A DNA stretch of 64,000 nt. It comes from Prevotella sp. (GTDB lineage Bacteria > Bacteroidota > Bacteroidia > Bacteroidales > Bacteroidaceae). The DNA lies in assembly GCA_017623655.1 (NCBI GenBank), contig JAGAON010000001.1, positions 44,233 to 108,232 of the forward strand, read 5' to 3'. The position numbers and the translations under genes were made by a program. Below are positions 35,733 to 59,365 of the stretch, piece by piece (the stretch's first letter is position 1; the number at the start of each line of letters is the position of its first letter). The notes beneath the pieces are model-generated. The model was not told the origin of the DNA and searched no databases. It saw only the letters and a list, made by a program, of their open reading frames with translations.

Positions 35733-38102
35733 TTACCTTTGCTGACGCCACTTGCTTGCGCCTACGTTGTTGAGGTAGATGGCGTTGCTGAAGTCCTTGA
35801 AGTGGAGGTCAACCATGCCCACGCCAACGTTGTTGGTGGCGGTGACAGTGCCGTCGATACCGTCGCAGCGGTGGTCGTTGTGATGAGGTACGCCGGCTGT
35901 CTGCACGAATGGCGGGTTGGGCTGTACCATCAGCTGTGTGGCCTTTATGTCGGCGGCCTTTACTACAAGTCCCTCGCGGCCGAACTCGCCCCATTCTACC
36001 TCCTTGTCATCCCCTACATCGATAAGCTTGCCGAAGGCGTTCTTAGTACCGCTGAAGCCGGAAGCCGGGTCGTTCCAAATCTGATCGTCAGGACATCCCT
36101 CAGCAGCCTCATTGGTTGACCAGTTGTTGCCGATATCGACTTTCACCTTATTGTCACTACCGCCACGCATTGTTCTCATATCGCAACCTACGAAGAAGAT
36201 AGGACGAGCGGTGTCCTCTGCCTTACGGGTGCTGATGAAGAGGTTGTTCTTGATGGTGAATGTAGAACCACCAGGGAACTGTCTCATGTAGAAGAAGTGG
36301 CAACCGTTGCTTCTACCGAAGTTGACGATGGTGTTGTTCTCAACGGTGATGTTGTATTGGAAGTCTGCCGGCCAGTCCTCCTTAGGATCATTGTTGTGAG
36401 AGAAGAAACGGCCGAGTGAGTTGTCGAAGACGGTGCATTCGCGGAACACGAAGTTCTTGAAGATGTTTTGGCGCACGCTCTTGTCCGGGTGAGTGTGGAA
36501 ATAGTTGTAGCGGCGTCCGGAGGTGGAGTAATATCCGCCGTTGTAGAAGTCGCAGTTTTCCACGGTGAAGTTTTCTATCTCGTAGCCGTAAGAGCCTTGC
36601 ACACGGAAGAATCCGCCGATGCAGTCCTGGAACGAGCAGTTGGTGAAGCGCATCTCCTGCATGCTCACACCCATGCTGTTGCCGTAGGTGTTCATGAAGT
36701 ATGAGTTTGTGGCTGCCGGGTCACCGACGTTCTTTGCCAATGGTGCGCCGAAGTCGATGTCTTCCACTATGAATGTCTCCATGTCAAGGGCGATGAGCGG
36801 GTTCTCTGAACCTTGTGCGGTACGTCCGAGCATGAATGAGGCGTATGAGTTGCCGCCTGCGCCGGTGAAGTCGAAGCCGTGGTAGGTATATACCTTCGCA
36901 CGGCCCTTGCCCGCCGCGAGATCCTCTGGGTTGGTAGCCAGACGGAAGCCTTTATAGACATTCATACCGCCGCGCAGGAAGTAGGTCTGTCCGCCTTCAA
37001 GGTAGAAGGTCTGGCCCTCGGCAAGTGTGAGGTCTGTCATGAATGACACCAGGGTCTCCTGTATGGAGGTGGCAGGTACGGGCAGTTGCTCCGCATACTG
37101 CGTTCCGCTGATTTCGAAGTGTATGGTGTCCTGGGGGTTGGCCGCAAGGAGTATGGGCTCGCCCGGATCACCCTTCATGCGCTGCATGATACCGTTGAAC
37201 TTGGCGTCAACGATGGGCTTGTCTGCGAGAAGGTTCTCGTCGAGAGCCTCACAGACATATACGGCGTTCTGGTCAAGGCCTTCGATGTGTACTGTGGCCG
37301 TGCCGTCTTCCTGCCATACGTCATCGGGTATCTTGTACATCTTGAGCTCCTCGGGAACGTTTGCCGTCGGGTTGGATGATGACGCATATACCATGATGTG
37401 TGTGACGCGCCATACCTGATTGCCGAAGGCGTCGGTCTCGGTGGCGAAGTGCTGGCTGAACTCTTCTATAAGCTCCGGGGTGTACTTGTTGTTGTAAACG
37501 CCTGCCACCACGTTGTTGTTGTCATGGTTGAAGCCAAGATATGAGCGGTCAAGGAAGATGTCAAAGCCAGTTTTTGTGGCGTTACCCTTCTGGTAGATGA
37601 TGTTCGGCACGTTGTAGCGGTCGTTTGTGCGTATGCTCATGTAGTCCGCCCAATGGCCGGTGTCGCCATAGCCGTACCATAGGGAATGGTGTGCCTCGCC
37701 CCTTGCCGAGAGTGCGCGGATGGCAAAGTAATAATCCGTGGAATAGGCAAGGTCCTTAAGGAGCAGGTTGTCAGTGTCCGCACCTTCTATCCTGTGGGTC
37801 TCGACCTTTGTCTCGTCAGCCCAGTCCTCGGCGGTGTTGAGCTTCTGTGTCGCCACCTTTATCTCATAGCCGATGCAGTCTTCGCCGACACGTGACCAGT
37901 AGAGCTGGATGGTGTTCAGTCCTTGGACGCCACAGATGTACGGATCATTGGAGCCCGCGTTCACCGTATAGCGGTTACGGAACTGTGGCTGCATAAGGCG
38001 GTCGGAGTCCGGGCCGGCTGTGCCATTGTCTGTCTGGTCGCTACATGCCGCCATTGCAATCAGTGCGAGCAGAGTCAGTAAGTATGATTGTAACTTTTTC
38101 AT
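35733..38102 (-). CDS. Surface lipoprotein with Fn3-like and beta-helix (DUF4957/DUF5123-like) regions; putative surface glycan-binding protein
   Basis: Lipobox MAAC, an Fn3-like segment (LAYSTDYYFAIRALS), and beta-helix rungs FTNCSF/VENCDF/FRECTV/VENNTI. It lies downstream of susD. Confidence 0.75.
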   Translation of the reverse strand: MKKLQSYLLTLLALIAMAACSDQTDNGTAGPDSDRLMQPQFRNRYTVNAGSNDPYICGVQGLNTIQLYWSRVGEDCIGYEIKVATQKLNTAEDWADETKVETHRIEGADTDNLLLKDLAYSTDYYFAIRALSARGEAHHSLWYGYGDTGHWADYMSIRTNDRYNVPNIIYQKGNATKTGFDIFLDRSYLGFNHDNNNVVAGVYNNKYTPELIEEFSQHFATETDAFGNQVWRVTHIMVYASSSNPTANVPEELKMYKIPDDVWQEDGTATVHIEGLDQNAVYVCEALDENLLADKPIVDAKFNGIMQRMKGDPGEPILLAANPQDTIHFEISGTQYAEQLPVPATSIQETLVSFMTDLTLAEGQTFYLEGGQTYFLRGGMNVYKGFRLATNPEDLAAGKGRAKVYTYHGFDFTGAGGNSYASFMLGRTAQGSENPLIALDMETFIVEDIDFGAPLAKNVGDPAATNSYFMNTYGNSMGVSMQEMRFTNCSFQDCIGGFFRVQGSYGYEIENFTVENCDFYNGGYYSTSGRRYNYFHTHPDKSVRQNIFKNFVFRECTVFDNSLGRFFSHNNDPKEDWPADFQYNITVENNTIVNFGRSNGCHFFYMRQFPGGSTFTIKNNLFISTRKAEDTARPIFFVGCDMRTMRGGSDNKVKVDIGNNWSTNEAAEGCPDDQIWNDPASGFSGTKNAFGKLIDVGDDKEVEWGEFGREGLVVKAADIKATQLMVQPNPPFVQTAGVPHHNDHRCDGIDGTVTATNNVGVGMVDLHFKDFSNAIYLNNVGASKWRQQR

Positions 38103-38120
38103 TTGAATGTTGTTTTGGTT

Positions 38121-40319
38121 TTAATATCCGTAGTAATTCCTGTATGCGCCGGATGAACGTGTTATGGCCTCGCGTGGTATCGGCAGCAGGTAACGCACTA
38201 CCGGCAGGTCGGCAACGTTTACGGAAGCGAGATCCACTCTTTCCTCTACACCGTCACGCACAACGTATATGGTGTTCTTGGCGGTCTCTCCGCTTTCTCC
38301 GGCATGGATGAAGCCATAGAGTGAGTAGAGCACGCCGTCCTTAGGACATGAGGCGTCACTGTCATACCATTCCAAGGTGCGGTATTCCCATGGGTTCTTG
38401 GTGCTGCTGGCGTTGTTAGGCTCAGGAATGGGCTTGTATGTTGACTCAACCGCATTCGGGAAGTTGTTTTTCAGGAACTTGAAGAACTTCTCGGGAGAGC
38501 CGATTTCCGCCTTTGGCTGTGCCACGTATGCCTCAGGGTTATAGACATAGATGGTAGGCAGCTCGCTGTTGGCAAAGAACTTGTTGTCCTTAGGATTGTC
38601 TATGTAGCAGTAATAGATGGTCTGGGTCAGCAGAGGTGACTTTGGCTGGCCTACCGCCTTGTTGTAGGCGTCGTCGCCGGGAATGGCCGCGTCGATTTCC
38701 TCTTGCGTGTATGTGCCGTTGCTTGAGAAGTAGTCCACGCCGTCGTATGCCTGTACGAGGTCTTCCTCCGCACCTTCCGACACGCCGCCCATGTTGAGGG
38801 CCACGGCGTGATTGCGCATGAACGTGTAGTAGAGAACCTCTGAGAGCTTATTGTTACGCACGAGATCCTTCCAGCGGCTGTTCTCTCCGGCGAACTCCCA
38901 CTTGCGTTCGTCAAGGATTTCTTTCAGGAAAGCCTCAGGACTTGCGCCTGCCACGGCAGGAGCGGCCTTGCCGGAACCGATGTAGGCACGGTTACGTACC
39001 TTCTGCACGCATTCCTTTGCCTCGTCGCTGACATTGTTGGTGAGTTTTACGTCAGCCTCCGCCCACATCAGGAGCACGTCCGCATAACGGAGGTAGGGAT
39101 AGTTGATGCCGGTGTTGCTGGCAGTGGTGTTGTTGAACGCCTTGGTCTTGTTCCAGAGCTTGGACCACTTGTTGTTATACATGGAGAGGTTAGAGGCTCC
39201 TATAATCTTAGGTGTGCCGTCGTATGTATATTCCCACCAGCCGATTGTGGCGTCCTTGCGTGTGTCTCCGGGTTTGTATGAGAAGCGGTGCAGTACGCTT
39301 ACCTGCTGGTTGCCGCCGGTCTCGCCCCACTCGTAGTTTGTCACGCCGCCGTTAGAAGCGAACTTTGGTCCCTGACGGTAGCCTATGCTGCCTGACGACT
39401 CCTGTGCGAACGGTATCTCGAAGATAGGATCGTCACCGCGCAGAAGCTCGAAGTTACACTCTGCAAGGAACACGTCCTGATAACTCTTGACAAGGTCGTG
39501 CTTGTTGCTTTGTATCACCTTGCCGGCGTATTCGCGGGCTTTCGTGAGGAACCATGTCTCTGTCTCTGCGGCAGGCTTGCCCATATAGCCGTAGCTGCTT
39601 GCGTCATCCTCCGCGTGGCGCAGTGAGTATCCTGCCGCTTGCAGGGCGATACGCGCTATGATGCCGTAGCAGGCCTCCTGGCTGATACGCTCGATGGTTG
39701 TCTCGTCTGATGACTGCATATCCTTTGCGGCGTCTTCAAGGTCGAGTATAAGCCGCTTGGCTATGGTGTCACGTGGCGTGATTACCGGATAATAGTTGCC
39801 GGTAACGGATGTCGGTTCTGTCGGGAACGGCACGTCACCCCAGTAGCACAGAAGCTCGTTGTAGAGCATTGCGCGGATAGCCTTTGCCTCACCCATATAC
39901 TGTGCGAGTGTGCGCCAGTCGTCGCTTGACTTTGTGTAGATTGGGCTTTTCCCGAGATTGTAGATGAAGTTGTTGGCACTCTCTATCGCATTGTACGTGG
40001 TGTTCCACACACTGTTGGCGGTAGAGCTGCTTGCGTCCACGTCGTAACGCTTTGGGGTGTTGGTCTGCCTTGTTGACGAAGAGTTGCTGTTGAAGTCAAC
40101 GTCACTGTTGAGTATCAGCGAATATGTGAAGGCCTGCCCGAAGGTGTTTCCCTCCAGCAGTCCCCTGTAAACGCCGTTGAGTGCCGTGCCCGTCTCTTTT
40201 GTAGAACCGTAGATCTTCTCTATGTCATGCTTTGACGGCGCGTCAACATCAAGGTAATCGTTACATGCCGTCAGCGACATGATGCCGAGTCCGCTTATTA
40301 ATATATTTCTTAATTTCAT
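38121..40319 (-). CDS. susD: SusD/RagB-family lipoprotein
   Basis: LTAC-NDYLD, GEAKAIRA, WGDVP, LRYADVLLMWAEA and ERKWEFAGENSRWKDLVR motifs. Confidence 0.93.
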   Translation of the reverse strand: MKLRNILISGLGIMSLTACNDYLDVDAPSKHDIEKIYGSTKETGTALNGVYRGLLEGNTFGQAFTYSLILNSDVDFNSNSSSTRQTNTPKRYDVDASSSTANSVWNTTYNAIESANNFIYNLGKSPIYTKSSDDWRTLAQYMGEAKAIRAMLYNELLCYWGDVPFPTEPTSVTGNYYPVITPRDTIAKRLILDLEDAAKDMQSSDETTIERISQEACYGIIARIALQAAGYSLRHAEDDASSYGYMGKPAAETETWFLTKAREYAGKVIQSNKHDLVKSYQDVFLAECNFELLRGDDPIFEIPFAQESSGSIGYRQGPKFASNGGVTNYEWGETGGNQQVSVLHRFSYKPGDTRKDATIGWWEYTYDGTPKIIGASNLSMYNNKWSKLWNKTKAFNNTTASNTGINYPYLRYADVLLMWAEADVKLTNNVSDEAKECVQKVRNRAYIGSGKAAPAVAGASPEAFLKEILDERKWEFAGENSRWKDLVRNNKLSEVLYYTFMRNHAVALNMGGVSEGAEEDLVQAYDGVDYFSSNGTYTQEEIDAAIPGDDAYNKAVGQPKSPLLTQTIYYCYIDNPKDNKFFANSELPTIYVYNPEAYVAQPKAEIGSPEKFFKFLKNNFPNAVESTYKPIPEPNNASSTKNPWEYRTLEWYDSDASCPKDGVLYSLYGFIHAGESGETAKNTIYVVRDGVEERVDLASVNVADLPVVRYLLPIPREAITRSSGAYRNYYGY

Positions 40320-40349
40320 GTTGTTTCAGTTTCTTTTGGTAATCTGTAA

Positions 40350-43300
40350 TTAGAAGTTCACGTTGAGACCGAATGAGAATGCACGGTTACGCGGGTAGCG
40401 GTTGTAGTCCATTGAAGGAGTAAGGCCTGACTGTACGTCCACTTCCGGGTCGTATCCGGAGTAACCGGTGAGAATGAACAGGTTGCTTGCGGAAACGTAT
40501 GCGCGCACCTTGCTGATGCCTATCTTCTTCAGAAGTTTCTTTGGCAGTGTGTAGCCGATGGTGAGGTCGTTGCAGCGGAGGAACGAGCCATCCTCAACGA
40601 AGTATGAGTTGATGGTGCGTGACGTAACGTCAGCAGGGTTCCAGAGGCTCTTGCCGCCGTTCATCTCCGTGAAGATCTCAATAATCTTGTTCGTGCTTAT
40701 GTTGCCGTTCTGCATTACGTCGTCGTGGCTGCCGGTGTCGTAAGTGTAGCACCAGCGGTTGTCGCGGCCGAACTCTGCCAGCACGTTGGTATAGCTTGAA
40801 GAATTCTCGGAAGCTGATGACAGAGCGTATGCCGTACCGTTGTAAACGTCAAAGTTAAGCATATATGTGAAGTTTACGGCAAAGTCCCAGTCCTTCCATG
40901 TGCCGTTGAGGCCGAAGCCGCCCTGCCAGCGCGGGTTGGTGTTGCCTATCACGGTGCGGTCCTTGGTCGTGATCTTCCCGTCGCCGTCCAAGTCCTTGAA
41001 CTTGATCTTGCCTGCCATGGTGGGATCACCTGATATGGACGCCTTCATCACGTCGGTGGTCATCTCCGGCACACCGTCCTTCAACACCCACTTGCGCTTG
41101 TTCACAACGCTCTCCGGCTGGAAGTCGTCGATGCTGTACACGCCGTCGTAGATGTAACCGTAGAGCAGGCCAACCTCGTTGCCTACCTCAAGCAGGTAGT
41201 CGTCCTGCCCGACAGAGCTGAAGCGTGAGGAGTAGTTGAACAGGCGTGAGTCGGTAGCGTTAAGCTCCTTGACGGTCATCTTGTTGTGTCCGGCCGTCAG
41301 GGTGCCTGAGAGCACGAAGTCCTTGCCGCGCATGATGTCTCCGCTGACGGTAAGCTCAAAGCCCTTGTTCTGCACCTTGCCGATGTTCTGCATCTGCTTG
41401 GTGTAACCGGAAACGGCAGGTATGGTCGAGTTGTAAAGAAGGTCACGCGTGGTGTTCCAGTACAACTCGGGCGTAACGTTCAGGCGGCCGCCGAAGAGCG
41501 AGATGTCAAACGCCACGTTGCGTGTGATGGTCGTCTCCCACTTCACGTCAGTGTTGGGGAATGTTGACGGGATGTCATAGTACATTTCGCCATACTGGCG
41601 GTTCTCGCCGAATCCCGGGCCTCCCTCTATCTGCATGGTGTAGAGGTAGCGCCACATATCGTCGTTGATATTGTTGTTACCTGCAAGACCGAAGGCAAGG
41701 CGCAGCTTCAGCTGGTCAATCCATTTCACGTCCTTGAGGAACTTCTCCTTGTTTATCACCCACGCTCCGGAGATTGACGGGAACCAGCCCCACTGGTTGC
41801 CCGGCGCGAACTTGGTTGAGCCGTCACCGCGGATGGTGCCGGACAGATAGTACTTGGAGTCGTAGTTGTATGACACCTGTCCGAAGAAGGACGCCGTGCG
41901 GTTTGAGGTTGACAGATAAGTGTTGCTGATGTACGGAGTGCCGAGACCCATGTTGTTGAACGCCTCCTCCGCGCCCACGGCACGGTCGAAGTAGCGGTTC
42001 TTCTGCTCGCTCTCCTTGTACTGCGTGTTGTAAATCTCCTGTCCGAGGAGGTACGAGAGGTTATGCACGTCATTCAGCGTGTGGCTGTATGTGGCTGTAT
42101 TTGTCCATGTGTACGACTGCGTAGTGCGCTGCACAAGTGATGCCACAGGCTGCGAGTTATACTTCTTGCCCTCGCCGGTGAGCGCGCCCCAATAACGCTG
42201 CGTGTCACGGAAGGTGATGGAGTAGTTGCCCTCCGTGCGCAGGATAAGGTTCTGTATCGGTTCCCATTGCAGTGAGAAACGGTTGTTCACATTATATGAA
42301 TGCCTCTTCTGCACGTTGGTGGCAATGTTAGCGACAGGGTTGTTCTCGTCGAAGTCCTTGTCAATGTCAGCGTCCACGAAGTTAGGGTTGTGCGAGCCGA
42401 ACTGGCGGTAACCCTTTGTGGGACGGTACTGAAGCACGTCTATGATACCGCCTACACCCACTCCTTCGCCGCCTGCGCCCTCGTCGCGACGGTAAGTCAT
42501 CGTCGGGCTGTAAGTCAGCTTGAGGTTCTTGCTGATGTTGGTGGCGAGCTTGAGGTTGATGTTGGTACGGCGAACGCCGGAACCCATGATGATACCCTTG
42601 TCCTCGGACTGCGTCAGGGACAGGTTGAACTTCGTCTTCTCGCTGCCGCCGCCCACTGTTACGTTGGCTGAATAGCTGAGCGGAGTCTCGTTCATCACCT
42701 CGTCCTGCCATGACGTGTTAGGCAGCGTGCGGTAGATGTCGATGTCGGAAGGGTTGCCGTAGTTCTCGCGGAAATAACGTGTCGAGCCGTTGCTGTAGCT
42801 CACGTTACCCTGTGCGCGGTCCCACTGGTACTCCACGAAATCTCCCGTGTTCATCAAGTCGAGCTTCTTTGAGATGTGCGAGAGGGTCATGCGTCCGTTG
42901 AACGACACCTGCACCTTGCCCTCCTTGGCCGACTTGGTGGTCACCACGATAACGCCGTTACCGCCCTTCGCGCCGTAGATGGCGGTGAGGGAGGCGTCCT
43001 TCAACACGTCGATGGACGCGATGTCGCTCGGCGGGATGTCGTTGATGTTTGACTGCTGGAAGCCGTCAACGATGTAGAGCGGCTCGTTGGACTGCGTGAC
43101 TGACGTTGCGCCGCGCACGCGGATGTTGATGTCCGCACCCGGCTGGCCATCGACAGAGGTGACCTGCACGCCGGCGATCTTGCCTTGGAGAGCCTCTGCG
43201 GCAGAAGCCACAGGCACGGCGGCCAGCTTGGCGCCGGAGATGGAGCCTACGGAACCCGTGAGGTCCTTGCGGGCCTTGGAGCCGTAACCGATGGCCACCA

Positions 43301-43619
43301 CCTCGTTAAGCACGGTGGCGTCATCTTCCAATGTGACAGCCACTTCCGACTTTCCGCCGGGTTTGACGCTGGCCGTCTTCATGCCAACGTATGAAATCAG
43401 CAGTTCGTGGGACGCGGACTGCATCTTGATGGTGAAGTTACCGTCGAAGTCGGTGATGACGCCGTTGCTGGTGCCCTTCTCCATGACGGTTGCGCCGATG
43501 ACCGGCTCACCCATGCTGTCCTTAACGTTACCCTTCACTGTCTGCGCCTGTACTGCCGCACAGAACATGAGCAGCAGCGCAACGAGCGCAAAGCGTACGT
43601 TTTTGATTTTTTCAGACAT
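40350..43619 (-). CDS. susC: SusC/RagA TonB-dependent transporter
   Basis: LNEVVAIGYG, NEPLYIVDG, IDVLKDASLTAIYGAKGGNGVIVVTTK and a terminal GLNVNF. Confidence 0.96.
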   Translation of the reverse strand: MSEKIKNVRFALVALLLMFCAAVQAQTVKGNVKDSMGEPVIGATVMEKGTSNGVITDFDGNFTIKMQSASHELLISYVGMKTASVKPGGKSEVAVTLEDDATVLNEVVAIGYGSKARKDLTGSVGSISGAKLAAVPVASAAEALQGKIAGVQVTSVDGQPGADINIRVRGATSVTQSNEPLYIVDGFQQSNINDIPPSDIASIDVLKDASLTAIYGAKGGNGVIVVTTKSAKEGKVQVSFNGRMTLSHISKKLDLMNTGDFVEYQWDRAQGNVSYSNGSTRYFRENYGNPSDIDIYRTLPNTSWQDEVMNETPLSYSANVTVGGGSEKTKFNLSLTQSEDKGIIMGSGVRRTNINLKLATNISKNLKLTYSPTMTYRRDEGAGGEGVGVGGIIDVLQYRPTKGYRQFGSHNPNFVDADIDKDFDENNPVANIATNVQKRHSYNVNNRFSLQWEPIQNLILRTEGNYSITFRDTQRYWGALTGEGKKYNSQPVASLVQRTTQSYTWTNTATYSHTLNDVHNLSYLLGQEIYNTQYKESEQKNRYFDRAVGAEEAFNNMGLGTPYISNTYLSTSNRTASFFGQVSYNYDSKYYLSGTIRGDGSTKFAPGNQWGWFPSISGAWVINKEKFLKDVKWIDQLKLRLAFGLAGNNNINDDMWRYLYTMQIEGGPGFGENRQYGEMYYDIPSTFPNTDVKWETTITRNVAFDISLFGGRLNVTPELYWNTTRDLLYNSTIPAVSGYTKQMQNIGKVQNKGFELTVSGDIMRGKDFVLSGTLTAGHNKMTVKELNATDSRLFNYSSRFSSVGQDDYLLEVGNEVGLLYGYIYDGVYSIDDFQPESVVNKRKWVLKDGVPEMTTDVMKASISGDPTMAGKIKFKDLDGDGKITTKDRTVIGNTNPRWQGGFGLNGTWKDWDFAVNFTYMLNFDVYNGTAYALSSASENSSSYTNVLAEFGRDNRWCYTYDTGSHDDVMQNGNISTNKIIEIFTEMNGGKSLWNPADVTSRTINSYFVEDGSFLRCNDLTIGYTLPKKLLKKIGISKVRAYVSASNLFILTGYSGYDPEVDVQSGLTPSMDYNRYPRNRAFSFGLNVNF

Positions 43620-43660
43620 AGAATAATGTTTTAGATTAATATGAAATTGTTTGTAGTTTG

Positions 43661-43722
43661 TTGTATAGTTAGTCTCTGCGATTCAGGCTTCCGCCGCCGT
43701 GTTCAGGTTACCGGCGCTAACC
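43661..43722 (-). repeat. 62-bp inverted repeat, left copy
   Basis: Its reverse complement matches 44599-44660 at 59/62 positions. Confidence 0.95.
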
Positions 43723-43747
43723 CAAACGGGGGGATGAAACCGGTGGT

Positions 43748-43980
43748 GAACCCTGAAAGGGTGACAGAACCAAGCCCGGGGTGCAAACCCCGGGTACGAT
43801 AATGATGCCGACAATGAATAGTATTGGCACCCCGAAGCCGGCAGGCGAGATGCCCGCAGGGCAGCGAGGGGTGAAAACAAAAACGGATAACGGAAAACGT
43901 GTGGCAAACGGCAAAAGTCATTGCGAACGGAACGCGGATGTATCACCCCGGGTTAAGCTCTGTCACCCCTGCGGGGTTAA
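43748..43980. repeat. Palindromic REP-like element (CCCTGAAAGGG family)
   Basis: AACCCTGAAAGGGTGACAGA..CCCGGGGTG pairs with CACCCCGGG..TCTGTCACCCCTGCGGGGTT. Confidence 0.8.
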
Positions 43981-43986
43981 CCGGAA

Positions 43987-44071
43987 AACAAACAGCACCT
44001 GTTTACAGTGTAATCAGCACCATTTCATCGTGCAATCAGCACCTGTTTGCCACGCAATCAGCACCAGATTA
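43987..44071. repeat. 22-bp tandem array
   Basis: Four units, e.g. gcaatcagcacctgtttgccac. Confidence 0.75.
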
Positions 44072-44132
44072 CGAACGCCCCATAAAAGATTGGAAAAATC
44101 AGGATTACGGGGCGATGACGCAGCCGGGAAAA

Positions 44133-44253
44133 GTAGGCACGGCATCTTGCCGCGCAACAGACGAAGACGACCAAGAGAAGGCGTATTTTTATACATCCTC
44201 AAAAAAACAAGCCTGTGGCAATGCAGGGAGACGATGAGGTTCATCGTCTCTAC
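44133..44253. repeat. Hybrid GTAG REP doublet
   Basis: GTAGGCACGGCATCTTGCCGCGC ... GAGACGATGAGGTTCATCGTCTCTAC. Confidence 0.7.
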
Positions 44254-44465
44254 CCGCGGACATGACAAACGAGCAGCCTGTCACGTTTTTTGATGATAAA
44301 AAATGTAAAAGAAAGGAATGTTTATAAAACAAAAAGTGCCGGTTTGCGCTTTTTGTATGGGGGAAAAATGTGTCACAGATGCCTATAATAACAGTAAAAT
44401 CGTATCAGTTGAACGCTTTTATAACTTTTTAACATCCTTTTCTTTCTCTTATCTTGAAATATTTT

Positions 44466-44473
44466 TACTTTTG
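44466..44473 (+). promoter_or_regulatory. -7 promoter element inside the IR-bounded segment
   Basis: TACTTTTG in an AT-rich context, with no good -33 TTTG. Confidence 0.6.
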
Positions 44474-44563
44474 TAACGACAAATTATCATTTGCATAGGG
44501 AAAAGCATAGAGAAAACATTTGTCATCCATAAGGATTATCCTTAACCTTGAAGAAACGATATT

Positions 44564-44638
44564 ATGAATTTACAGTTGTCCGGAACAGCCTTGGCAAAGG
44601 TTAGCGCCGGTAACCCGAACACGACGGCGGAAGCCTGA
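44564..44638 (+). CDS. Putative 24-aa leader peptide crossing the right IR boundary
   Basis: MNLQLSGTALAKVSAGNPNTTAEA*, with an A-rich start context (AAGAAACGATATT-ATG). Confidence 0.35.
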   Translation: MNLQLSGTALAKVSAGNPNTTAEA

Positions 44639-44660
44639 ATCGCAGAGACTAACTACACAA
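44599..44660 (+). repeat. 62-bp inverted repeat, right copy
   Basis: GGTTAGCGCCGGTAACCCGAACACGACGGCGGAAGCCTGAATCGCAGAGACTAACTACACAA. Confidence 0.95.
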
Positions 44661-44837
44661 AAAACAATATAAAAGCATACTAATCATATCGGAATGTTTT
44701 ATGAGGATAAGGGAAAAACCGTGTGCCGGGCATCGCGGTAGTCACCCCGCGGAGGCCTGTCGGCAGGGTGGGGAAGGAGTGCCTTATCTGTTGCAGGTAA
44801 ATACAAACAAATAAAATACAAACAAAAACTATTCAAC

Positions 44838-47291
44838 ATGTCAAACATTCTAAAGAATTTATTGAGCTGTGCGCCCAAAGTGGGCAGGCTTGGCATGGGC
44901 TCACTCTGCCTGGCCTTGGGGTTGGCTTCGTGTTCGGACATGGATGAGTACTTCGAGACCCCGTCGTGGCTTCGAGGTTCTGTCTATGAGACGCTGAACG
45001 ATGACGGCAACTATTCCCTCTTCCTCGCAGGTGCCGAGAAGGCGGGGTACCGTCCGCTCATGGAGGGCAAGTCCATCGTCACCGTCATGGCGCCTACTGA
45101 CGAGAAGCTGGCCGCCTACATGAACGAGCATTACGGCACCGCAGACGTCAACTCCATTCCCGTTGAGGAGTTGCAGAAGCTGATAGGCTTCCATATTCTC
45201 TACTATTCTTTCGACAAGAACAACCTCATCAACTTCCGCCCTGCGGAGGGTGACGGGGCTACGGAGGATGAACTGCTGGCGAATGCGGGACTGTACTATA
45301 AGTTCCGCACAAAGAGCCAGGACCCGATCACGGTGGAGCAGGCGGAGATTACGACCACCGACGCCGCTACGGGAACTTCCACCACGGAGGTGAAGAATGT
45401 TGACGTGTATCACCTTGAGCGTTACGTGCCGGTGTTCTCATACCAGATGTTCCGCACAAAGACCATCAGCGCTGCCGAGAACTACAACTACTTCTTCCCC
45501 GGACAGTGGCGCGGCGACAACGGCTTCAACGTGAGCAACGCCGGTGTTGACGAATATAGCGTGGCCACAAGCAACGGTTACATCTACCGCGTGGATAACG
45601 TGCTGACACCGTTGCAGACCATATATACCGAGCTGAAGAACCGCCCGCAGTTCAGCCGCTTCCTGTCCATGTATGACAAATACAGCAACTATGTCATGGA
45701 CGAGAACCTTACCACAAACTACGGCAACGGCAAGGAACTGTACCAGCATTACCACAACAAGGACTACCAGCTTGCGCCGATAGCCTGCGAATGGCCGGTC
45801 ACCGACTACACGGCGGTGGTCGATCTTGCAAGCCGTTCATACTCCGTTTTCGCCTTCTCCAACGATGCCTTCGAGTCTTTCTTCAATGACTTCTGGGGAC
45901 AGGGAGGGTATGAGAGCATGGACGACCCCGACCTTGCGGAGCCTGTGAGGGACCTGTTGCTGAACTCATACAGCACCGAGAGCGTCGCGTTCCCGGAGGA
46001 GATAGAGAAGGGACTGGTGCTCAACTACAACATAGACGCAAGGAATCCTACGCCGATACGCTTTGACCCGTATGCCGATGTGGCGCAGGAGAACCGCGTG
46101 ATGTGCTCCAACGGCGTGCTCTACGGATGCAGCAAGCTCACACCGCCGGCCAAGTACAACTCCGTGACAGGCCCGGCATACCAGTACAAGAAGTTCTCCT
46201 TCTTCCTCAATATGCTGAACGCCTCGGGCATGACCAACACGCTGTCACTGGAGTCGGAGAAGTACATCATGCTCTATCCGTCCAACCAGCAGATGACGGA
46301 CAGGGAGGGTTACGCCTTTGACGAGACCGGAAGGCTCGTGACAGTGGTCGGCACTACCAGCACGCCGGTCAGCTCGGCGACGAAGTCCGCCACCATCAAC
46401 GCACACGTGGCGTCACCCGATGACGGCAACACCGTGCTGCCGCTGACGGGAAAGAAGGTGATACAGGCCTTCACGCCGGACTTCAAGCTGTACTGGTACG
46501 TGAAGGATGGCAAGCTGACAAACTCTATAAAGCATAACGACCGGCTGAAATATGCCGAGAACACCGTCACCGACGAGGATATATGGGCTTCCTTCGAGCC
46601 GCTCGGATACCGCGGGGACGATAACGGATGGACCAACGGCCATGCCTACCAGTACGACAATCTCGTGTTCCACGGCAACTACGCTGACTTGCGTTTCAAT
46701 AACTTCATGACCATGATGTGGAACCTGCACACGGACGAGACGACGGACTTCTACGGATGGATAAACCTGCTTAACAGGTCGGGACTTGTGACAAACCAGG
46801 GGCAGATGCCTCTCATGACGGAGTCCTCACTCATGTTCGTGCCCGCTACGCAGGCACTGGAGCAGGCCATACTCGACGGAAAGCTGCCGGGAATAACGGC
46901 TGACGAGGGTGCGGCGGCAGGCAACGCCGACTTCTTCACCCGCTGCACTGTCACGGACCAGGCCGCCTTGCAGACGTACCTGCTGTCTTATTTCGTGCCG
47001 CTCTCTTCCGCAGTGATGTCCAACTACCCCTATCCCGGATGGGGTGAGGACACAAGGCAGTACGGAGGCCTGATAACCTTCGACCAGGATGCGGAGCAGT
47101 CTGACATAGCCACACGGCTTAACATATATGATGACGGCACACGCCTCAGCGTGACAAGGACGCCGATAAACACCACGACGGAATCGGCAAGAGTGACGGT
47201 CAGTGACGCTTACGACACTTTCCCGTTCGTGTTCGAGGATGGTTGCGTGCATTTCCTCGAAGACGTGCTGCCACTTGTCAACGGAAAATAA
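44838..47291 (+). CDS. Fasciclin (FAS1)-domain lipoprotein
   Basis: Lipobox LASC, TVMAPTDE and SNGYIYRVDNVLTP (FAS1 H1/H2 motifs). Confidence 0.85.
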   Translation: MSNILKNLLSCAPKVGRLGMGSLCLALGLASCSDMDEYFETPSWLRGSVYETLNDDGNYSLFLAGAEKAGYRPLMEGKSIVTVMAPTDEKLAAYMNEHYGTADVNSIPVEELQKLIGFHILYYSFDKNNLINFRPAEGDGATEDELLANAGLYYKFRTKSQDPITVEQAEITTTDAATGTSTTEVKNVDVYHLERYVPVFSYQMFRTKTISAAENYNYFFPGQWRGDNGFNVSNAGVDEYSVATSNGYIYRVDNVLTPLQTIYTELKNRPQFSRFLSMYDKYSNYVMDENLTTNYGNGKELYQHYHNKDYQLAPIACEWPVTDYTAVVDLASRSYSVFAFSNDAFESFFNDFWGQGGYESMDDPDLAEPVRDLLLNSYSTESVAFPEEIEKGLVLNYNIDARNPTPIRFDPYADVAQENRVMCSNGVLYGCSKLTPPAKYNSVTGPAYQYKKFSFFLNMLNASGMTNTLSLESEKYIMLYPSNQQMTDREGYAFDETGRLVTVVGTTSTPVSSATKSATINAHVASPDDGNTVLPLTGKKVIQAFTPDFKLYWYVKDGKLTNSIKHNDRLKYAENTVTDEDIWASFEPLGYRGDDNGWTNGHAYQYDNLVFHGNYADLRFNNFMTMMWNLHTDETTDFYGWINLLNRSGLVTNQGQMPLMTESSLMFVPATQALEQAILDGKLPGITADEGAAAGNADFFTRCTVTDQAALQTYLLSYFVPLSSAVMSNYPYPGWGEDTRQYGGLITFDQDAEQSDIATRLNIYDDGTRLSVTRTPINTTTESARVTVSDAYDTFPFVFEDGCVHFLEDVLPLVNGK

Positions 47292-47388
47292 TCTTTTAGC
47301 CGTTTGGCGTTTTGGCTGACAGCCGGACAATCCACAGGACCGGACAACCAATCCGCCGGACTGCTAAATCATAAAATAATATACAACA

Positions 47389-50300
47389 ATGAAGAAATAC
47401 ATATATATATTATTGCTGTCTCTCTTCGCTGCCTTGCCCTCGGTGGCTCAGGATGTCCTTACAGGCACGGTGACAGAGACGATAGGAGGTGCGGACGAGC
47501 CGTGTATCGGCGTCAACGTCACGTTTGTAAACGCCCAGAACCGTATAGTCGTGGGTACCGTGACCGACCTCTCCGGAATGTACTCGCTCAAAGTTCCGGC
47601 CGATGCCGGCAAGCTGACGTTGCAGTTCTCATACATAGGAATGAAGACCCAGAAGATAAAATACACGGGGCAGAAGCAGCTGGACGTGAAACTTGAAGCC
47701 GACAACTCGCAGACACAGTTGCAGGAAGTGCACGTGACGGGCTCCCGCGGAAGCAGGAACGAGATGGGTGTCGGCGTGCGCGAGCAGGCTTTCGCCACAC
47801 AGAAGATAAACCTCGGACAGATACTTGAGGCCGCTCCCGTCACCTCTGTGGAGGAAGCCTTGCAGGGACAGCTGGGCGGTGTCGATATCATTGCCGGCGG
47901 AGACCCGGGCGCAAAGAGCAGCATCCGCATCCGCGGTACGGCCACTCTGAACTCAAACTCCGACCCGCTGATAGTCATTGACGGCGTGCCGTACTCCACG
48001 GACATCGACGATTCATTCGACTTCAACACCGCAAGTCAGGAAGATTTCGCGCAGATGCTGTCCCTGAACCCTAACGACATCGAGAGCATCGAGGTGCTGA
48101 AAGACGCCGCTTCAACCGCCATCTACGGCACAAAAGGCGCCAACGGCGTGCTGCTCATAACCAAGAAGAAGGGCGCACGCTCAAAGACACGCTTCACCTT
48201 CTCCACAAAGAACTCGGTGAAGATAGAGCCGGAATCAATGCCAATGCTCTCCGGAAACGACTATGTGGCATACATACAGGACGCCATCTGGAACTCGGCA
48301 AACGCCCAGGGACTCAACAACTCCGGCAATCTGCTGGAATATCTCTTCAATACTCCGGAGATAGGTTACAACCAGAACTGGCGCTATTTCGATGAGTACA
48401 ACCAGAACACCGACTGGTTGTCATACGTAAAGCAGAACGCCTTTACCACCGACAACACCTTCTCCATGTCGGGAGGCGGCGAGAAAGCCAACTACCGTTT
48501 CTCCTTAGGATACATGAATGAGGGCGGTACCACCAAGGGAACATCCCTAGGCCGTCTGTCAACCTCGCTCAACGTGGGCTACAACTTCTCCGAGAAACTG
48601 CACGTGGAGGCCGAATATTCTTACACCGACACCGACAAGGACTCCCCATATACCGATGACGTGCGCGCCGCGGCACTGGTCAAAGCGCCGAACAAGTCAC
48701 CTTATTATATAAAGGACGGGCAGATGACCGGCACGTACTTTACCCGGCAGAACAAAGACGAGTTCCAAGGAGCGTACCGTGGTTCCAGCCGTATCAGCAA
48801 CAGCGCATACAACTATCATCCCGTCATCATGGCCGAGGACTCCTACAAGGAACTGTCCATCAAGGAGCAGAAGATGACAGTCCGCGCCCGGTGGTACGTG
48901 CTTCCGGAGCTTACCTACAACGGTTACGTGTCGATGAAGTTCAACACCCAGAAGACGGAAACATGGCTTCCGCAGTCTGCCACAGGCCTCGACTACGGAC
49001 TGTTGGAGACACACGGGAGCAACTACAACTACATAGACCAGGCCGGCGAGTCCTATTCCAACAACTTCTCCTTGCAGACCGAGAACAAGCTCATGTTCCG
49101 CAAGAACTGGAACGACATCCACAACCTTGTCGTTACGGGACTGTGGTACACCTCACAGAGCCGCGCCTCCACATGGTCGGCATACCGTTGCGGCGTGGGT
49201 TCATACTCCCTTTCCGACGTTTCTGGCGGCAACGGCTATCTGTATCAGGAAGTTTCCGGCAAGTCAGAGGTCACATCTCTCTCCGCCCGCGGCTCCGTGG
49301 CCTACACCTTCCTCAACCGCTATACCGTCAACGGCACCTTCAACTATGAGGGCAAGTCATCCCTCGGCAAGGACAACCGCTGGGGATTCTTCCCGTCAGT
49401 GGGCGTGTCATGGCAGGTGCAGGACGAGCCTTTCATGAAGGCTTGGAAGGAAGACTTCCTCACACAGTGGAAGATACGCGCGTCATGGGGTATGTCCGGC
49501 AATGCGCCGAGCGGCACGTCACCATACGTGGGAACGTATGCCTCACAGGGAAACTACATCGACGGTCCGGCAATATCCGCCAACACCATGCAGCTTAACA
49601 AGCTGAAATGGGAGACGTCACGCGAGATAGACCTCGGTACCGACATCAATATATGGGACGGCAAGCTGACGTTCACCTTCGACTACTACCGCAAGGACAC
49701 GAAAGACCTGTTGCAGAAGGACATCAAGATACCGCTTACCACCGGCTATCCCGATGCCAAGATGAAGTTCTACAACTCCGGCAAGCTGTGCAACGAGGGC
49801 TGGGAGGCGCGTGTTGACTGGAAGGCATTTCACAACAAGAAGTGGGACCTGTCCGTCAACTTCAACATCTCCAACAACAAGAACACCATCGTCGAGCTGC
49901 CCGAGAACATAGCCGAGGAGCAGTTCTCCATGAGGAACGGTTCCGGCAACTACGCCCAGAAGCTCATCGCCGGCACCTCCGTAGGCTCTTTCTTCGGATT
50001 CAAGTACAAGGGAGTGTATCAGAATACGGAGGCCACCTACGCCCGCGATGCTGAGGGCAACGTGATGTATGACCTCCAAGGTCAGCCCATCGTGATGCAG
50101 AACAATAATATCCGCTGCTATCCCGGCGATGCCAGTTATGAGGACATCAACCATGACGGCGTCATAGACAAGAACGACCTTGTTTATCTCGGCAACTCCA
50201 ACCCTACGCTTTCCGGTGGCGGCGGCTTCACGCTTAAATACGACCGCTTCGCCCTTACCGTCTTCATGCACTACCGCCTTGGTCAGAAAATCATCAATGC

Positions 50301-50697
50301 GGCGCGCATGGACGCGGAGGGAATGTATAACGCCAACAACCAGTCAACGGCCGTACTCGGCCGCTGGCGCAACGAAGGCGACCAGACGGAGATACCGCGC
50401 GCGCTGTGGAACTACGGTTACAACCAGCTCGGTTCCGACAGATACGTGGAGGACTGCTCGTTCCTGCGCTTCAAGACCATCTCGCTCAGTTACAACCTTC
50501 CAAAGAAGTTCTGCGAGAATATCGGCCTCACGTCGGCCAATGTGTTCCTGACGGGCTATGACCTCTTCACCATAACCGACTATACCGGCATGGATCCGGA
50601 AGTCACGCTGCCGTCAAGTGTCACCGCCATCGCCAAGGATCAGGCGCAGACACCGCGCAGCAAACGCTTCTCAATGGGCGTCACCGTAAACTTCTAA
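47389..50697 (+). CDS. susC: SusC/RagA TonB-dependent transporter
   Basis: IRIRGTATL, DPLIVIDG, IEVLKDAASTAIYGTKGANGVLLITKK and a terminal GVTVNF. Confidence 0.96.
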   Translation: MKKYIYILLLSLFAALPSVAQDVLTGTVTETIGGADEPCIGVNVTFVNAQNRIVVGTVTDLSGMYSLKVPADAGKLTLQFSYIGMKTQKIKYTGQKQLDVKLEADNSQTQLQEVHVTGSRGSRNEMGVGVREQAFATQKINLGQILEAAPVTSVEEALQGQLGGVDIIAGGDPGAKSSIRIRGTATLNSNSDPLIVIDGVPYSTDIDDSFDFNTASQEDFAQMLSLNPNDIESIEVLKDAASTAIYGTKGANGVLLITKKKGARSKTRFTFSTKNSVKIEPESMPMLSGNDYVAYIQDAIWNSANAQGLNNSGNLLEYLFNTPEIGYNQNWRYFDEYNQNTDWLSYVKQNAFTTDNTFSMSGGGEKANYRFSLGYMNEGGTTKGTSLGRLSTSLNVGYNFSEKLHVEAEYSYTDTDKDSPYTDDVRAAALVKAPNKSPYYIKDGQMTGTYFTRQNKDEFQGAYRGSSRISNSAYNYHPVIMAEDSYKELSIKEQKMTVRARWYVLPELTYNGYVSMKFNTQKTETWLPQSATGLDYGLLETHGSNYNYIDQAGESYSNNFSLQTENKLMFRKNWNDIHNLVVTGLWYTSQSRASTWSAYRCGVGSYSLSDVSGGNGYLYQEVSGKSEVTSLSARGSVAYTFLNRYTVNGTFNYEGKSSLGKDNRWGFFPSVGVSWQVQDEPFMKAWKEDFLTQWKIRASWGMSGNAPSGTSPYVGTYASQGNYIDGPAISANTMQLNKLKWETSREIDLGTDINIWDGKLTFTFDYYRKDTKDLLQKDIKIPLTTGYPDAKMKFYNSGKLCNEGWEARVDWKAFHNKKWDLSVNFNISNNKNTIVELPENIAEEQFSMRNGSGNYAQKLIAGTSVGSFFGFKYKGVYQNTEATYARDAEGNVMYDLQGQPIVMQNNNIRCYPGDASYEDINHDGVIDKNDLVYLGNSNPTLSGGGGFTLKYDRFALTVFMHYRLGQKIINAARMDAEGMYNANNQSTAVLGRWRNEGDQTEIPRALWNYGYNQLGSDRYVEDCSFLRFKTISLSYNLPKKFCENIGLTSANVFLTGYDLFTITDYTGMDPEVTLPSSVTAIAKDQAQTPRSKRFSMGVTVNF

Positions 50698-50732
50698 GCT
50701 CTTGCAGTATTATGGATTTAAGACAAGTAACA

Positions 50733-52310
50733 ATGAAAAAGATAAAGTCAACAATACTCTCCGTGGCTGTTGCAGCCCTGTGTCCCGCCGTGCTGACGGG
50801 TTGCGGCGATTACCTTGAGATAATCCCGGAGAACAACCTCGCGGTAGATAACTTCTGGGCGTCGAAGTCCGACGTTGCCTCCGCGCTCAATTCCGGCTAC
50901 TACTATCTGCGCGCCTCCGTTGAGGAAAAGCTCATCCCGTGGGGAGAGCAGCGCGCGGGCGTGATATACGGAAGGAGCATGGGCGCCAATGTGTTGCAGA
51001 ACTTCCAGATAAAGTCCACCAGCGGCATCTGCTCATGGGCCGACATGTACAAGATAATCAACCAGGCCAACCTCGTGTTGCAGAATGCGGGCAAGGCTCA
51101 GGGCAACGACCCCACATACACTACCGAGGAGGTAAACTCGCACTATTGCGAGGCATACTTCCTGCGTGCGCTGGCATACTTCTACATAGTGCGTAACTGG
51201 CGTGACGCCCCGCTGGTGACAGTGCCTTACGAGACCGACGAGACACCGTTGCAGATAGAGAAGTCGCAGGAAAGTGTGCTCATACAGCAGATACAGTCTG
51301 ACCTCACCGCCGCCATACAGCTTGGTGCTGCCAAGGACCTGTGGGACACCACATGGGAGACCAAGGGCAAGGCGACCAAGTGGTCAATATACGCCCTGAT
51401 GGCTGACGTGTGCCTGTGGAACAGCCAGTTCGACGAGGCCATAAAGTACTGTGACATGATACTGGAAGACAAGTCGGGCAACGCTCCGGCGCTCATCACG
51501 TCTCCGCGCACACACACCGGATGGTTCGCCATGTTCAACCCCGGCAACAGTAAGGAGTCAATCTTCGAGGTACAGTGGAATCAGGAGAAGGCAGACGGTT
51601 CCGGCACGCAGCAGAACACGCTCTATGACAGGTTCGCGGGTCTGGAGAGCGGCTCCTACTATATCTCCCAGCAGGCCATGACCGAGTTCAGGGAAGACTA
51701 CGAGTACCAGAAGACGGCGTTCCGCGTGTTCGCCGAGCCGGAGAACGCCTGCCGCACACTGCACGGCTCTTACAGCGGCGACGACGGTCGTGTATGGAAA
51801 TACATCGGCGGTTCCTCACTGCTGGAGGAGCGCACCGCGGCCGCCCATGACGTCAATTTCATCATCTACCGCGTGGCCGACATCATGCTCATGAAGGCCG
51901 AGGCTCTCGTGATGCGCGGCAAGGGACTTGTCGCCGCCGACAATGCTGAGGCCATATCCCTGATAAACGCCATCCGCGAGCGCAGCAACTGCGAGGCTGT
52001 CACGGCAGACGGGACAGAGCCTGTCACCACCCTGATGGACTACATCGTCCGCGAGCGGGTGATGGAACTCCTTGCCGAGGGCAGAATATGGTACGACCTG
52101 CTGCGCATCTCGCGCTATACGGGCATAGACGGTTTCGACGCGAAGTCATACGCCACGAACAAGATAGTGTATTACAGCGCCACCAACCAGAACGCCAGCG
52201 AGTCATGGATAAAGAACGTGCTGCTGAACGAGAACGCATGGTTCCTGCCTGTCTATGAGTCGGAAATGAAGAACAACGGCAAACTTGTGCAGAACCCTTA
52301 TTATCAGTAA
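50733..52310 (+). CDS. susD: SusD/RagB-family lipoprotein
   Basis: LTGC-GDYLEI, EAYFLRALAYFYIVRNW, IYRVADIMLMKAEA and ERVMELLAEGRIWYDLLR motifs. Confidence 0.93.
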   Translation: MKKIKSTILSVAVAALCPAVLTGCGDYLEIIPENNLAVDNFWASKSDVASALNSGYYYLRASVEEKLIPWGEQRAGVIYGRSMGANVLQNFQIKSTSGICSWADMYKIINQANLVLQNAGKAQGNDPTYTTEEVNSHYCEAYFLRALAYFYIVRNWRDAPLVTVPYETDETPLQIEKSQESVLIQQIQSDLTAAIQLGAAKDLWDTTWETKGKATKWSIYALMADVCLWNSQFDEAIKYCDMILEDKSGNAPALITSPRTHTGWFAMFNPGNSKESIFEVQWNQEKADGSGTQQNTLYDRFAGLESGSYYISQQAMTEFREDYEYQKTAFRVFAEPENACRTLHGSYSGDDGRVWKYIGGSSLLEERTAAAHDVNFIIYRVADIMLMKAEALVMRGKGLVAADNAEAISLINAIRERSNCEAVTADGTEPVTTLMDYIVRERVMELLAEGRIWYDLLRISRYTGIDGFDAKSYATNKIVYYSATNQNASESWIKNVLLNENAWFLPVYESEMKNNGKLVQNPYYQ

Positions 52311-52364
52311 ACCGAACGACAAACAGACAGCCGGAAGCCGGGCAGGAACAGGGGACAAGGTGAA

Positions 52365-52444
52365 AGAGGCCTGTTTACACTGTAATCAGCACCTTTTCAC
52401 ACCATAATCAGCACCTGATTGCACAGTAAAAGCATGCTGATTGC
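52365..52444. repeat. 22-bp tandem array inside the PUL
   Basis: gtaatcagcaccttttcacacc ataatcagcacctgattgcaca. Confidence 0.7.
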
Positions 52445-52509
52445 AACGCCCTGGGAAACAACCGTTTCCGCCCGGTGTTCCACAAATACATAATCAAGAA
52501 TCCAAAATT

Positions 52510-54297: not shown

Positions 54298-54310
54298 AAA
54301 ATATCACGAT

Positions 54311-56164: not shown

Positions 56165-56184
56165 AAAACTCCCTTACCTGATAT

Positions 56185-59337: not shown

Positions 59338-59365
59338 ATATCATAAACAACGAAAACATACTATT

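Follow-up and report, generated by a model that had tools for sequence, protein, structure and literature searches.

Comparison with described invertible promoters

In Bacteroides thetaiotaomicron, invertible promoters are bounded by imperfect 17-nucleotide (nt) palindromic repeats and lie beside tyrosine recombinase genes (Porter et al., bioRxiv 10.1101/521070), and in B. fragilis the recombinase Tsr19 inverts one local and one distant promoter (PMC4747536). Here we describe a related arrangement in a stretch of 64,000 nt, hereafter the window, from Prevotella sp. (GCA_017623655.1, contig JAGAON010000001.1, positions 44,233 to 108,232 of the forward strand), in which a segment between inverted repeats (IRs) separates two divergent SusC/D loci. 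An earlier note on this DNA, referred to below as the original prediction, had proposed that the segment is invertible and directs a single promoter to one locus or the other. We regard the locus as quite probably a conservative site-specific inversion switch (promoter inverton) between the two SusC/D loci. The observation behind the original prediction was confirmed, as were inversion and crossover at dyads within the repeats, but its nutritional bet-hedging is no better supported than other roles and its single promoter motif does not extend to most other strains. The source genome (G000) is a 1.93 Mb assembly, 60% complete, and the host is an uncultured gut/rumen Prevotella, the runs containing the stretch being bovine, pig and other gut metagenomes. 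Prevotella is dominant in many ruminant, pig and non-Western human guts and, to our knowledge, phase variation in the genus is almost unstudied, most lineages being uncultured.

The locus shares with the BT1927-type promoters an invertible promoter segment (its promoter being predicted here), 17-nt imperfect palindromes, a presumed tyrosine recombinase and outer-surface protein genes as targets (10.1101/521070). Each BT1927-type promoter, however, turns one operon ON or OFF and is accompanied by a recombinase gene of its own, whereas the cassette in the window lies between two SusC/D loci, its candidate recombinase is encoded on another contig, and its repeats are extended to 62-76 nt by leader sequence. 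Tsr19, a recombinase encoded beside one invertible promoter and acting on a distant one, matches the arrangement that we propose for a recombinase designated P0032 (see below), although the Tsr19 targets are ON/OFF promoters of an exopolysaccharide operon and a lipoprotein cluster and the action of P0032 on either of its proposed sites is predicted from sequence. In the SusC shufflons (BT1040/1042/1046 with BT1041; B. fragilis Tsr0667), a tyrosine recombinase selects the SusC/D system at a single expression site, as is proposed for the window. Recombination in the shufflons takes place within the 5′ coding part of susC paralogues and moves the 5′ end and the promoter, whereas in the window the sites lie in 5′ untranslated leaders, both genes are intact and only the promoter segment turns. 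A single invertible promoter between two opposed genes, one or the other of which is expressed, was reportedly described for the sap locus of Campylobacter fetus by Dworkin and Blaser in the 1990s; its inversion is said to be RecA-dependent and to use ~600 bp of conserved 5′ coding sequence, in contrast to the window, where crossover in a 17-nt dyad points to site-specific recombination.

Mechanistically the locus would belong with the known Bacteroidales promoter invertons operated by tyrosine recombinases, making it an extension and not a new principle. It differs from known invertons in that the cassette lies between two divergent SusC/D loci, the recombinase would act in trans from beside a second target, and the host is an uncultured Prevotella. 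A literature search that did not cover the PhaseFinder paper found no two-way promoter switch between SusC/D loci. We know of no description for SusC/D loci of a promoter switch that chooses one of two transporters with a trans-acting, self-regulated invertase. Useful features of this sequence-defined switch are a crossover mapped to 17 bp, both states in public assemblies, and a second target with a candidate enzyme.

Inverted repeats and core sites

A repeat search located two IR arms of 76 nt, 89% complementary and separated by 876 nt, each ending inwardly in a 17-nt dyad. These features, none of which is assigned to a strand, are as follows.

43647..43722, left arm (IR-L), from the repeat search; located 28 nt before the start codon of the left susC, in its 5′ leader
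43706..43722, left core site, dyad GGTTACCGGCGCTAACC; 17 nt, invariant in all strains typed
43723..44598, invertible segment; 876 nt in the window, reverse-complemented in contig L080
44599..44615, right core site, dyad GGTTAGCGCCGGTAACC; 17 nt
44599..44674, right arm (IR-R), from the repeat search; in the 5′ leader of the fasciclin-susC-susD operon, 164 nt upstream of the fasciclin gene

Base-by-base comparison reproduced the predicted inverted repeat of 59/62 identical positions between 43661-43722 and 44599-44660, and from 43656 inwards the arms mismatch only at 43660, 43665, 43697 and 43705. Similarity between the arms stops abruptly at their inner ends and fades gradually at their outer ends, and these are the only two copies of the IR in the genome. 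The inner ends are, as had been noted, GGTTA-N7-TAACC dyads, a pattern with just four occurrences genome-wide. Core sites of tyrosine recombinases are built in this way, as a 5-bp inverted pair separated by an asymmetric 7-nt spacer. The 17-nt dyad was identical in all 22 arms typed, the remainder of the repeat being variable. Each arm also has a second, degenerate copy of the outer half-site (43679-43695 compared with 43701-43717; ATTCAGGCTTCCGCC vs GTTCAGGTTACCGGC) ~22 nt outward of the core and conserved in all strains, which could be an accessory recombinase-binding site or merely leader sequence.

Inversion of the segment in public assemblies

Orientation was surveyed by typing the bases next to each dyad in assembled contigs encoding the same or near-identical flanking proteins. 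Eleven contigs, derived from 11 assemblies, span the whole intergenic region, and ten of them have the window orientation while one, L080 (ENA ERZ27236855 k141_482936, 42 kb), is flipped; contigs reaching one junction only have the window orientation throughout (10/10, none flipped). The inner segment is longer than in the window, ~1,245-1,271 nt, in nine of the ten other spanning contigs. Over its inner 1,271 nt, L080 is 98.9% identical to the L081/L119 segment once the latter is reverse-complemented, as against 46% in the same orientation. Its left junction reads GGTTACCGGCGCTAACC followed by TTTGCCAAGGCTG (shorter form, GGTTACCGGCGCTAACC followed by TTTGCCAAGG) and its right junction CCCCGTTTG followed by GGTTAGCGCCGGTAACC (alternative form, CCCCGTTTG followed by GGTTAGCGCCGG). 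The exchange was conservative, lying exactly at the inner ends of the IR with bases neither gained nor lost, and the L080 flanks differ from those of other strains by 32-49 single nucleotide polymorphisms in 7.8 kb (0.4-0.6%), within the usual between-strain distance. Misassembly of L080 is unlikely, its name (k141) being read as a 141-nt assembly word, inferred from the name, which exceeds the 76-nt IR. The segment flips as a unit in nature and both orientations occur within the species. The predicted invertibility is borne out by this exact reversal cut at the inner ends of the IR, and comparison of inner-segment orientation among strains and assemblies, the check proposed with the original prediction, found both states (10 vs 1 of the 11 spanning contigs).

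Two further contigs, L065 (63 kb, ERZ27236856) and L064 (Logan), terminate precisely at the last base of the left dyad, as would be expected if the assembly graph branched there between two orientations present in a single sample. Inversion accounts for assemblies breaking at these repeats, in these two contigs as in the related genome G062 (see below). Three Logan contig sets end at 43666-43696 when placed on the stretch because both arms contain one identical 31-mer, and these are uninformative on orientation. The raw-read run X21 had zero reads on the stretch and no conclusion was drawn from it. Scans of the Joint Genome Institute (JGI) metagenomes and GTDB with the fasciclin protein recovered the related species L031, L042 and L043 and no extra strains of the source species. 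When 36 species of the genus were compared, the sole match was the 5′ coding part of the left susC; the IR and inner segment are species-specific and a cross-species comparison of orientation is therefore impossible.

Position of the crossover

A 10-nt block beside the dyad distinguishes the two arms in most strains (AATGAGTTTG left, GTCGTGTTCG right), as does one further position. Both blocks remain attached to their own flanks in L080, and because these arm-specific mismatches stayed with the flanks, the exchange lay within the last 17-18 nt, i.e. the dyad. The 17-bp dyads GGTTA-N7-TAACC are the recombination sites, in agreement with the crossover site that had been predicted. The accompanying claim that inversion extends both dyads by one base pair holds for the window strain, judging from its sequence. 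The 45-60 nt of IR outside the dyad are probably not needed for recombination, the leader having been copied between arms by gene conversion; we infer this because the second inverton described below has 20-nt IRs, and because a GGAAGCCTGAATCGCAGAGACTAACTA block that is in both arms here occurs only in the fasciclin leader in the related genomes G062 and L043. A RecA-dependent process of the C. fetus sap type does not fit, the crossover being confined to 17-18 nt and not spread over long homologous coding sequence.

The arms could instead represent a duplicated 5′ leader without programmed inversion, L080 then being the outcome of rare RecA-type recombination between 62-76-nt repeats or of an assembly error. 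This would fit the solitary flipped contig, the mosaic distribution of arm variants among strains, which suggests gene conversion (A/G beside the dyad on opposite arms in L117 and the source strain), and the presence, in related species without an IR partner, of leader blocks homologous to IR-R in front of the fasciclin gene. The L080 crossover, however, fell in the 17-18-nt dyad and not in a longer, 21-nt identical block, two contigs end exactly at the dyad, and the name of L080 suggests a 141-nt assembly word longer than the repeat. A second inverton with the same dyad is moreover flipped in 4/9 contigs beside a tyrosine recombinase, and its 20-nt IRs are too short for efficient homologous recombination. 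We consider a duplicated leader without programmed inversion to be very unlikely.

Still more improbable, to the point that we give it almost no weight, is that the 1-kb unit is a non-autonomous transposable element with terminal inverted repeats inserted between the operons. Long terminal inverted repeats and an interior full of repeats (a miniature inverted-repeat transposable element (MITE)-like repeat, a 22-bp array and hairpins resembling repetitive extragenic palindromes (REP-like)) speak for such an element, but the IR has only two genomic copies, its sharp edge is the inner and not the outer one, its arms consist of leader sequence that other species also conserve ahead of the fasciclin gene, and the segment was flipped in place and not relocated.

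A second inverton and a candidate recombinase

No recombinase was found in the window. Four Phage_integrase (tyrosine recombinase) matches occur in the genome, on contigs C3 and C5, and its 60%-complete assembly gave no match to serine recombinases (PF00239). One of the four, P0032, adjoins a second inverton, and two of the other three are Xer-like.

G000:C5:250610-251702 (L115:4611-5703), unstranded, second inverton; 20-nt IRs GTTACGGGCGGTAACCTGAA, 100% complementary, with 1,053 nt between them
G000:C5:252078-253064, tyrosine recombinase P0032, 328 amino acids (aa), with Phage_int_SAM_5 and Phage_integrase domains; adjoins the second inverton on the opposite side from the open reading frame (ORF) described next

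The core of the second inverton matches the window site at 18/21 positions, including the flanking TTCAGG, and a TAACTTTG motif lies 137 nt from one of its IRs (vs 133 nt at the main locus), facing a 1,186-aa ORF with no Pfam family match. Public contigs cross its repeats because these are shorter than Logan's word, and five of the nine such contigs (L120, L125, L127-L129) have the genome orientation while four (L122, L123, L124 and L126) are flipped with exact junctions. Frequent inversion at this core site is therefore established, and the second inverton is predicted to be an ON/OFF switch for the 1,186-aa ORF. In a search of 120 genomes of the genus, close inverted pairs of the core were, among the matches listed, confined to the source's own genome. 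Alignment of the promoter-proximal ends of both invertons and L043 revealed only generic promoter similarity, and a common origin of the cassettes is not claimed.

The enzyme at the main locus is likely to be a tyrosine recombinase encoded elsewhere in the genome, P0032, which would act in trans on the dyads of the window. A recombinase in trans had been anticipated by the original prediction, and the genome search located the same core beside P0032, in an inverton found in both orientations. We put forward more tentatively, and at less than even confidence, that one recombinase runs a small regulon comprising a two-way selector, in which one shared promoter cassette would make expression of two unrelated SusC/D systems mutually exclusive, and an ON/OFF switch of the 1,186-aa protein, making it a self-regulated invertase. 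In the flipped form of the second inverton, the TAACTTTG promoter points antisense into P0032, which could feed back on switching at both loci.

Promoter motif and predicted transcription

The segment of the window strain carries one candidate promoter element.

44466..44473, + strand, Bacteroidetes-type -7 motif TACTTTTG; motif match in an AT-rich unique stretch

This is the only exact TAnnTTTG on either strand in 43600-44860, lying 133 nt from the inner end of IR-R and 372 nt from the fasciclin ATG, and no exact TAnnTTTG occurs between either IR and its gene in the window strain. Measured from the nearest edge of the adjoining dyad, the ATG lies 87 nt downstream for the left susC and 223 nt downstream for the fasciclin gene. 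In the window orientation, the promoter at 44466 would transcribe across IR-R and into the fasciclin-susC-susD operon, giving a leader of ~360 nt; in the flipped orientation, the same promoter would read through IR-L into the left susC-susD operon. The segment would accordingly carry one good sigma-ABfr-type promoter near one end and each cell would express one SusC/D system or the other, the remaining operon being expected to be silent because the stretch from each repeat to its gene contains no consensus motif. On these grounds we lean towards an either/or switch in which one promoter is directed to the left or the right operon. With this layout, one promoter is predicted to serve two outer-membrane uptake systems, which would be used in a mutually exclusive manner. 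If this is true, single strains would be mixtures of cells with different SusC/D surfaces, which would bear on nutrient niche, phage receptor availability and the interpretation of metagenomic strain variation.

A real inverton need not be an either/or switch; it may be an ON/OFF switch for fasciclin-susC-susD only, the left susC having another promoter (non-consensus, or a MITE-borne TAACTTTG), in which case inversion would swap promoters or affect one side only. Consistent with this, a second exact TAnnTTTG inside the segment points towards the left susC in 9/11 spanning contigs, and the 'fasciclin ON' state is found in 10/11 full and 10/10 partial contigs, so that the left locus would be nearly always silent without another promoter. 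The second motif, 279 nt from the left susC ATG in unflipped contigs, is however a seemingly poor promoter candidate, lying in a GC-rich MITE of which the genome has tens of copies, lacking a -33 element or AT-rich context, and being missing from both the window strain and L117. Between IR-L and the left susC start there are only 27 nt and no consensus motif, while in L080 the good motif faces the left susC at 236 nt from its ATG, a normal leader length. We judge an ON/OFF switch of the fasciclin side alone to be unlikely. The original claim of a single promoter motif is correct for the window strain and fails for most other strains, in which the second exact match is present.

Several points nonetheless weigh against an either/or switch operated by P0032. 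Only one flipped contig was found among 11 full and 10 partial ones, indicating that the main locus either strongly favours one state or seldom switches, and a single event cannot statistically separate site-specific from homologous crossover. If the either/or switch holds, the left locus would be off in most cells, given that 20/21 typed contigs are in one orientation. The genome-wide frequency of TAnnTTTG is 0.32 per kb per strand, and with ~0.8 chance matches expected in the interval a single match is not significant alone. The long form of the segment (9/11 spanning contigs) has the second exact TAnnTTTG, TAACTTTG, facing the left susC, and if this MITE-borne motif were active, inversion would exchange one promoter for another and neither side would fall silent. 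P0032 is tied to the main locus by site similarity and adjacency only, and the 60%-complete genome may hold another recombinase. Finally, counts of the core pattern GTTAYCGNNNNTAAC in 120 genomes of the genus were not above those of a reversed-pattern control; because the pattern is not enriched in these genomes, we take the system to be clade-specific.

Related species

The genome G062 is organised in the same way, with 91% identity in the fasciclin protein and 65% in the left susC. Both genes are preceded by one common ~60-nt leader that starts with its own dyad, GGTTATGGCCGATAACC, and differs from the repeat in the window, and both contigs stop within this dyad. Matches to P0032 in G062 are of 31-51% identity, too weak for use, and no dyad lies beside those genes.

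In L043 (Prevotella sp. SUG853, G061) the fasciclin protein is 88% identical, and the arrangement is fixed, in the order promoter, decayed dyad, left-susC leader with the first 77 codons, intact-looking dyad and fasciclin operon. The promoter is joined to the left-susC leader, as in L080. The L043 genome, which is possibly incomplete, has no match to P0032 (no homologue in G061 at E<=1e-20) and no close left susC. L043 looks like a decayed or rearranged relative of the switch. Its left-susC leader and 77 codons form a stand-alone ORF (L043:3432-3815), lying in direct orientation between the two dyads. A susC shufflon was considered after this 77-codon fragment was found and was rejected, the coding regions being unexchanged in L080.

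Flanking loci

The genes on the two sides of the invertible segment, as annotated with Pfam, are as follows.

35733..43619, - strand, left locus; susC 40350-43619, susD 38121-40319, beta-helix/fn3 protein 35733-38102
44838..61252, + strand, right locus; fasciclin-domain protein 44838-47291, susC 47389-50697, susD 50712-52310
within 44838..61252, + strand, further genes of the right locus; two more fasciclin/DUF5108 proteins, a second TonB-dependent receptor and a 628-aa ORF

No carbohydrate-active enzyme (CAZyme) or regulator families were recognised in either locus with Pfam in the window. The two divergent polysaccharide utilization loci (PULs) of the original prediction are SusC/D loci on both sides, to which the term PUL applies only loosely since no CAZyme was recognised. 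Nutritional bet-hedging, the role that had been proposed for the switch, is no better supported than other roles, neither locus having a recognised CAZyme or regulator; surface or phage-receptor variation is at least as plausible.

Contig L085 (ENA ERZ27236857 k141_5235) departs from the other strains at the equivalent of window position 43641, with unrelated DNA from 22 nt upstream of the left susC start. The replacement DNA has its own TACCTTTG motif and an ORF start (MEQNNSGISADF...), is not in the window genome, and ends with the contig after 146 nt. L085 may reflect an insertion or rearrangement that removed IR-L.

Passenger DNA in the invertible segment

Much of the segment consists of repeats that are dispersed in the genome, two of which have defined boundaries.

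43745..43982, unstranded, truncated MITE-like repeat; its ends are Rfam Acido-Lenti-1 (RF01687) hairpins at 43749-43794 (- strand) and 43947-43978 (+ strand)
43985..44075, unstranded, 22-bp tandem array of AATCAGCACC units; a pervasive intergenic repeat of the genome

Acido-Lenti-1 has 133 matches in the genome, mainly as inverted pairs ~265 nt apart, and is therefore interpreted as a MITE-like repeat of ~310 nt with some 60 or more genomic copies, the hairpins being its paired inverted ends. These hairpins were the only matches of the Rfam search, which identified no cis-regulatory RNA family in the leaders. The MITE copy inside the switch is internally deleted in the window strain, and nine of the ten other spanning contigs have an additional full copy, amounting to ~390 nt more. 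In BLAST searches against the genome, 43740-43880 has ~90-100 copies, the 22-bp array at 43980-44075 has hundreds of matches and a hairpin at 44220-44260 has ~30 copies, leaving only 44076-44220 and 44261-44598 as unique parts of the inner segment. The MITE and the 22-bp array are passenger DNA, outside the logic of the switch.

Hairpins of the REP-like type (GAGACGATG...CATCGTCTC, at 44226-44250 in the window) number ~30 genome-wide, with a stack of them inside the second inverton (L115:5133-5463). Arrays of 22-bp (A)ATCAGCACC units pervade the intergenic DNA; one lies inside the main inverton and one just outside the second (L115:5785-5870). The related species L043 also has a 22-bp array, at 2662-2760, downstream of a 786-aa gene that may be feoB-like, as suggested by an adjacent small Cys-rich membrane peptide.

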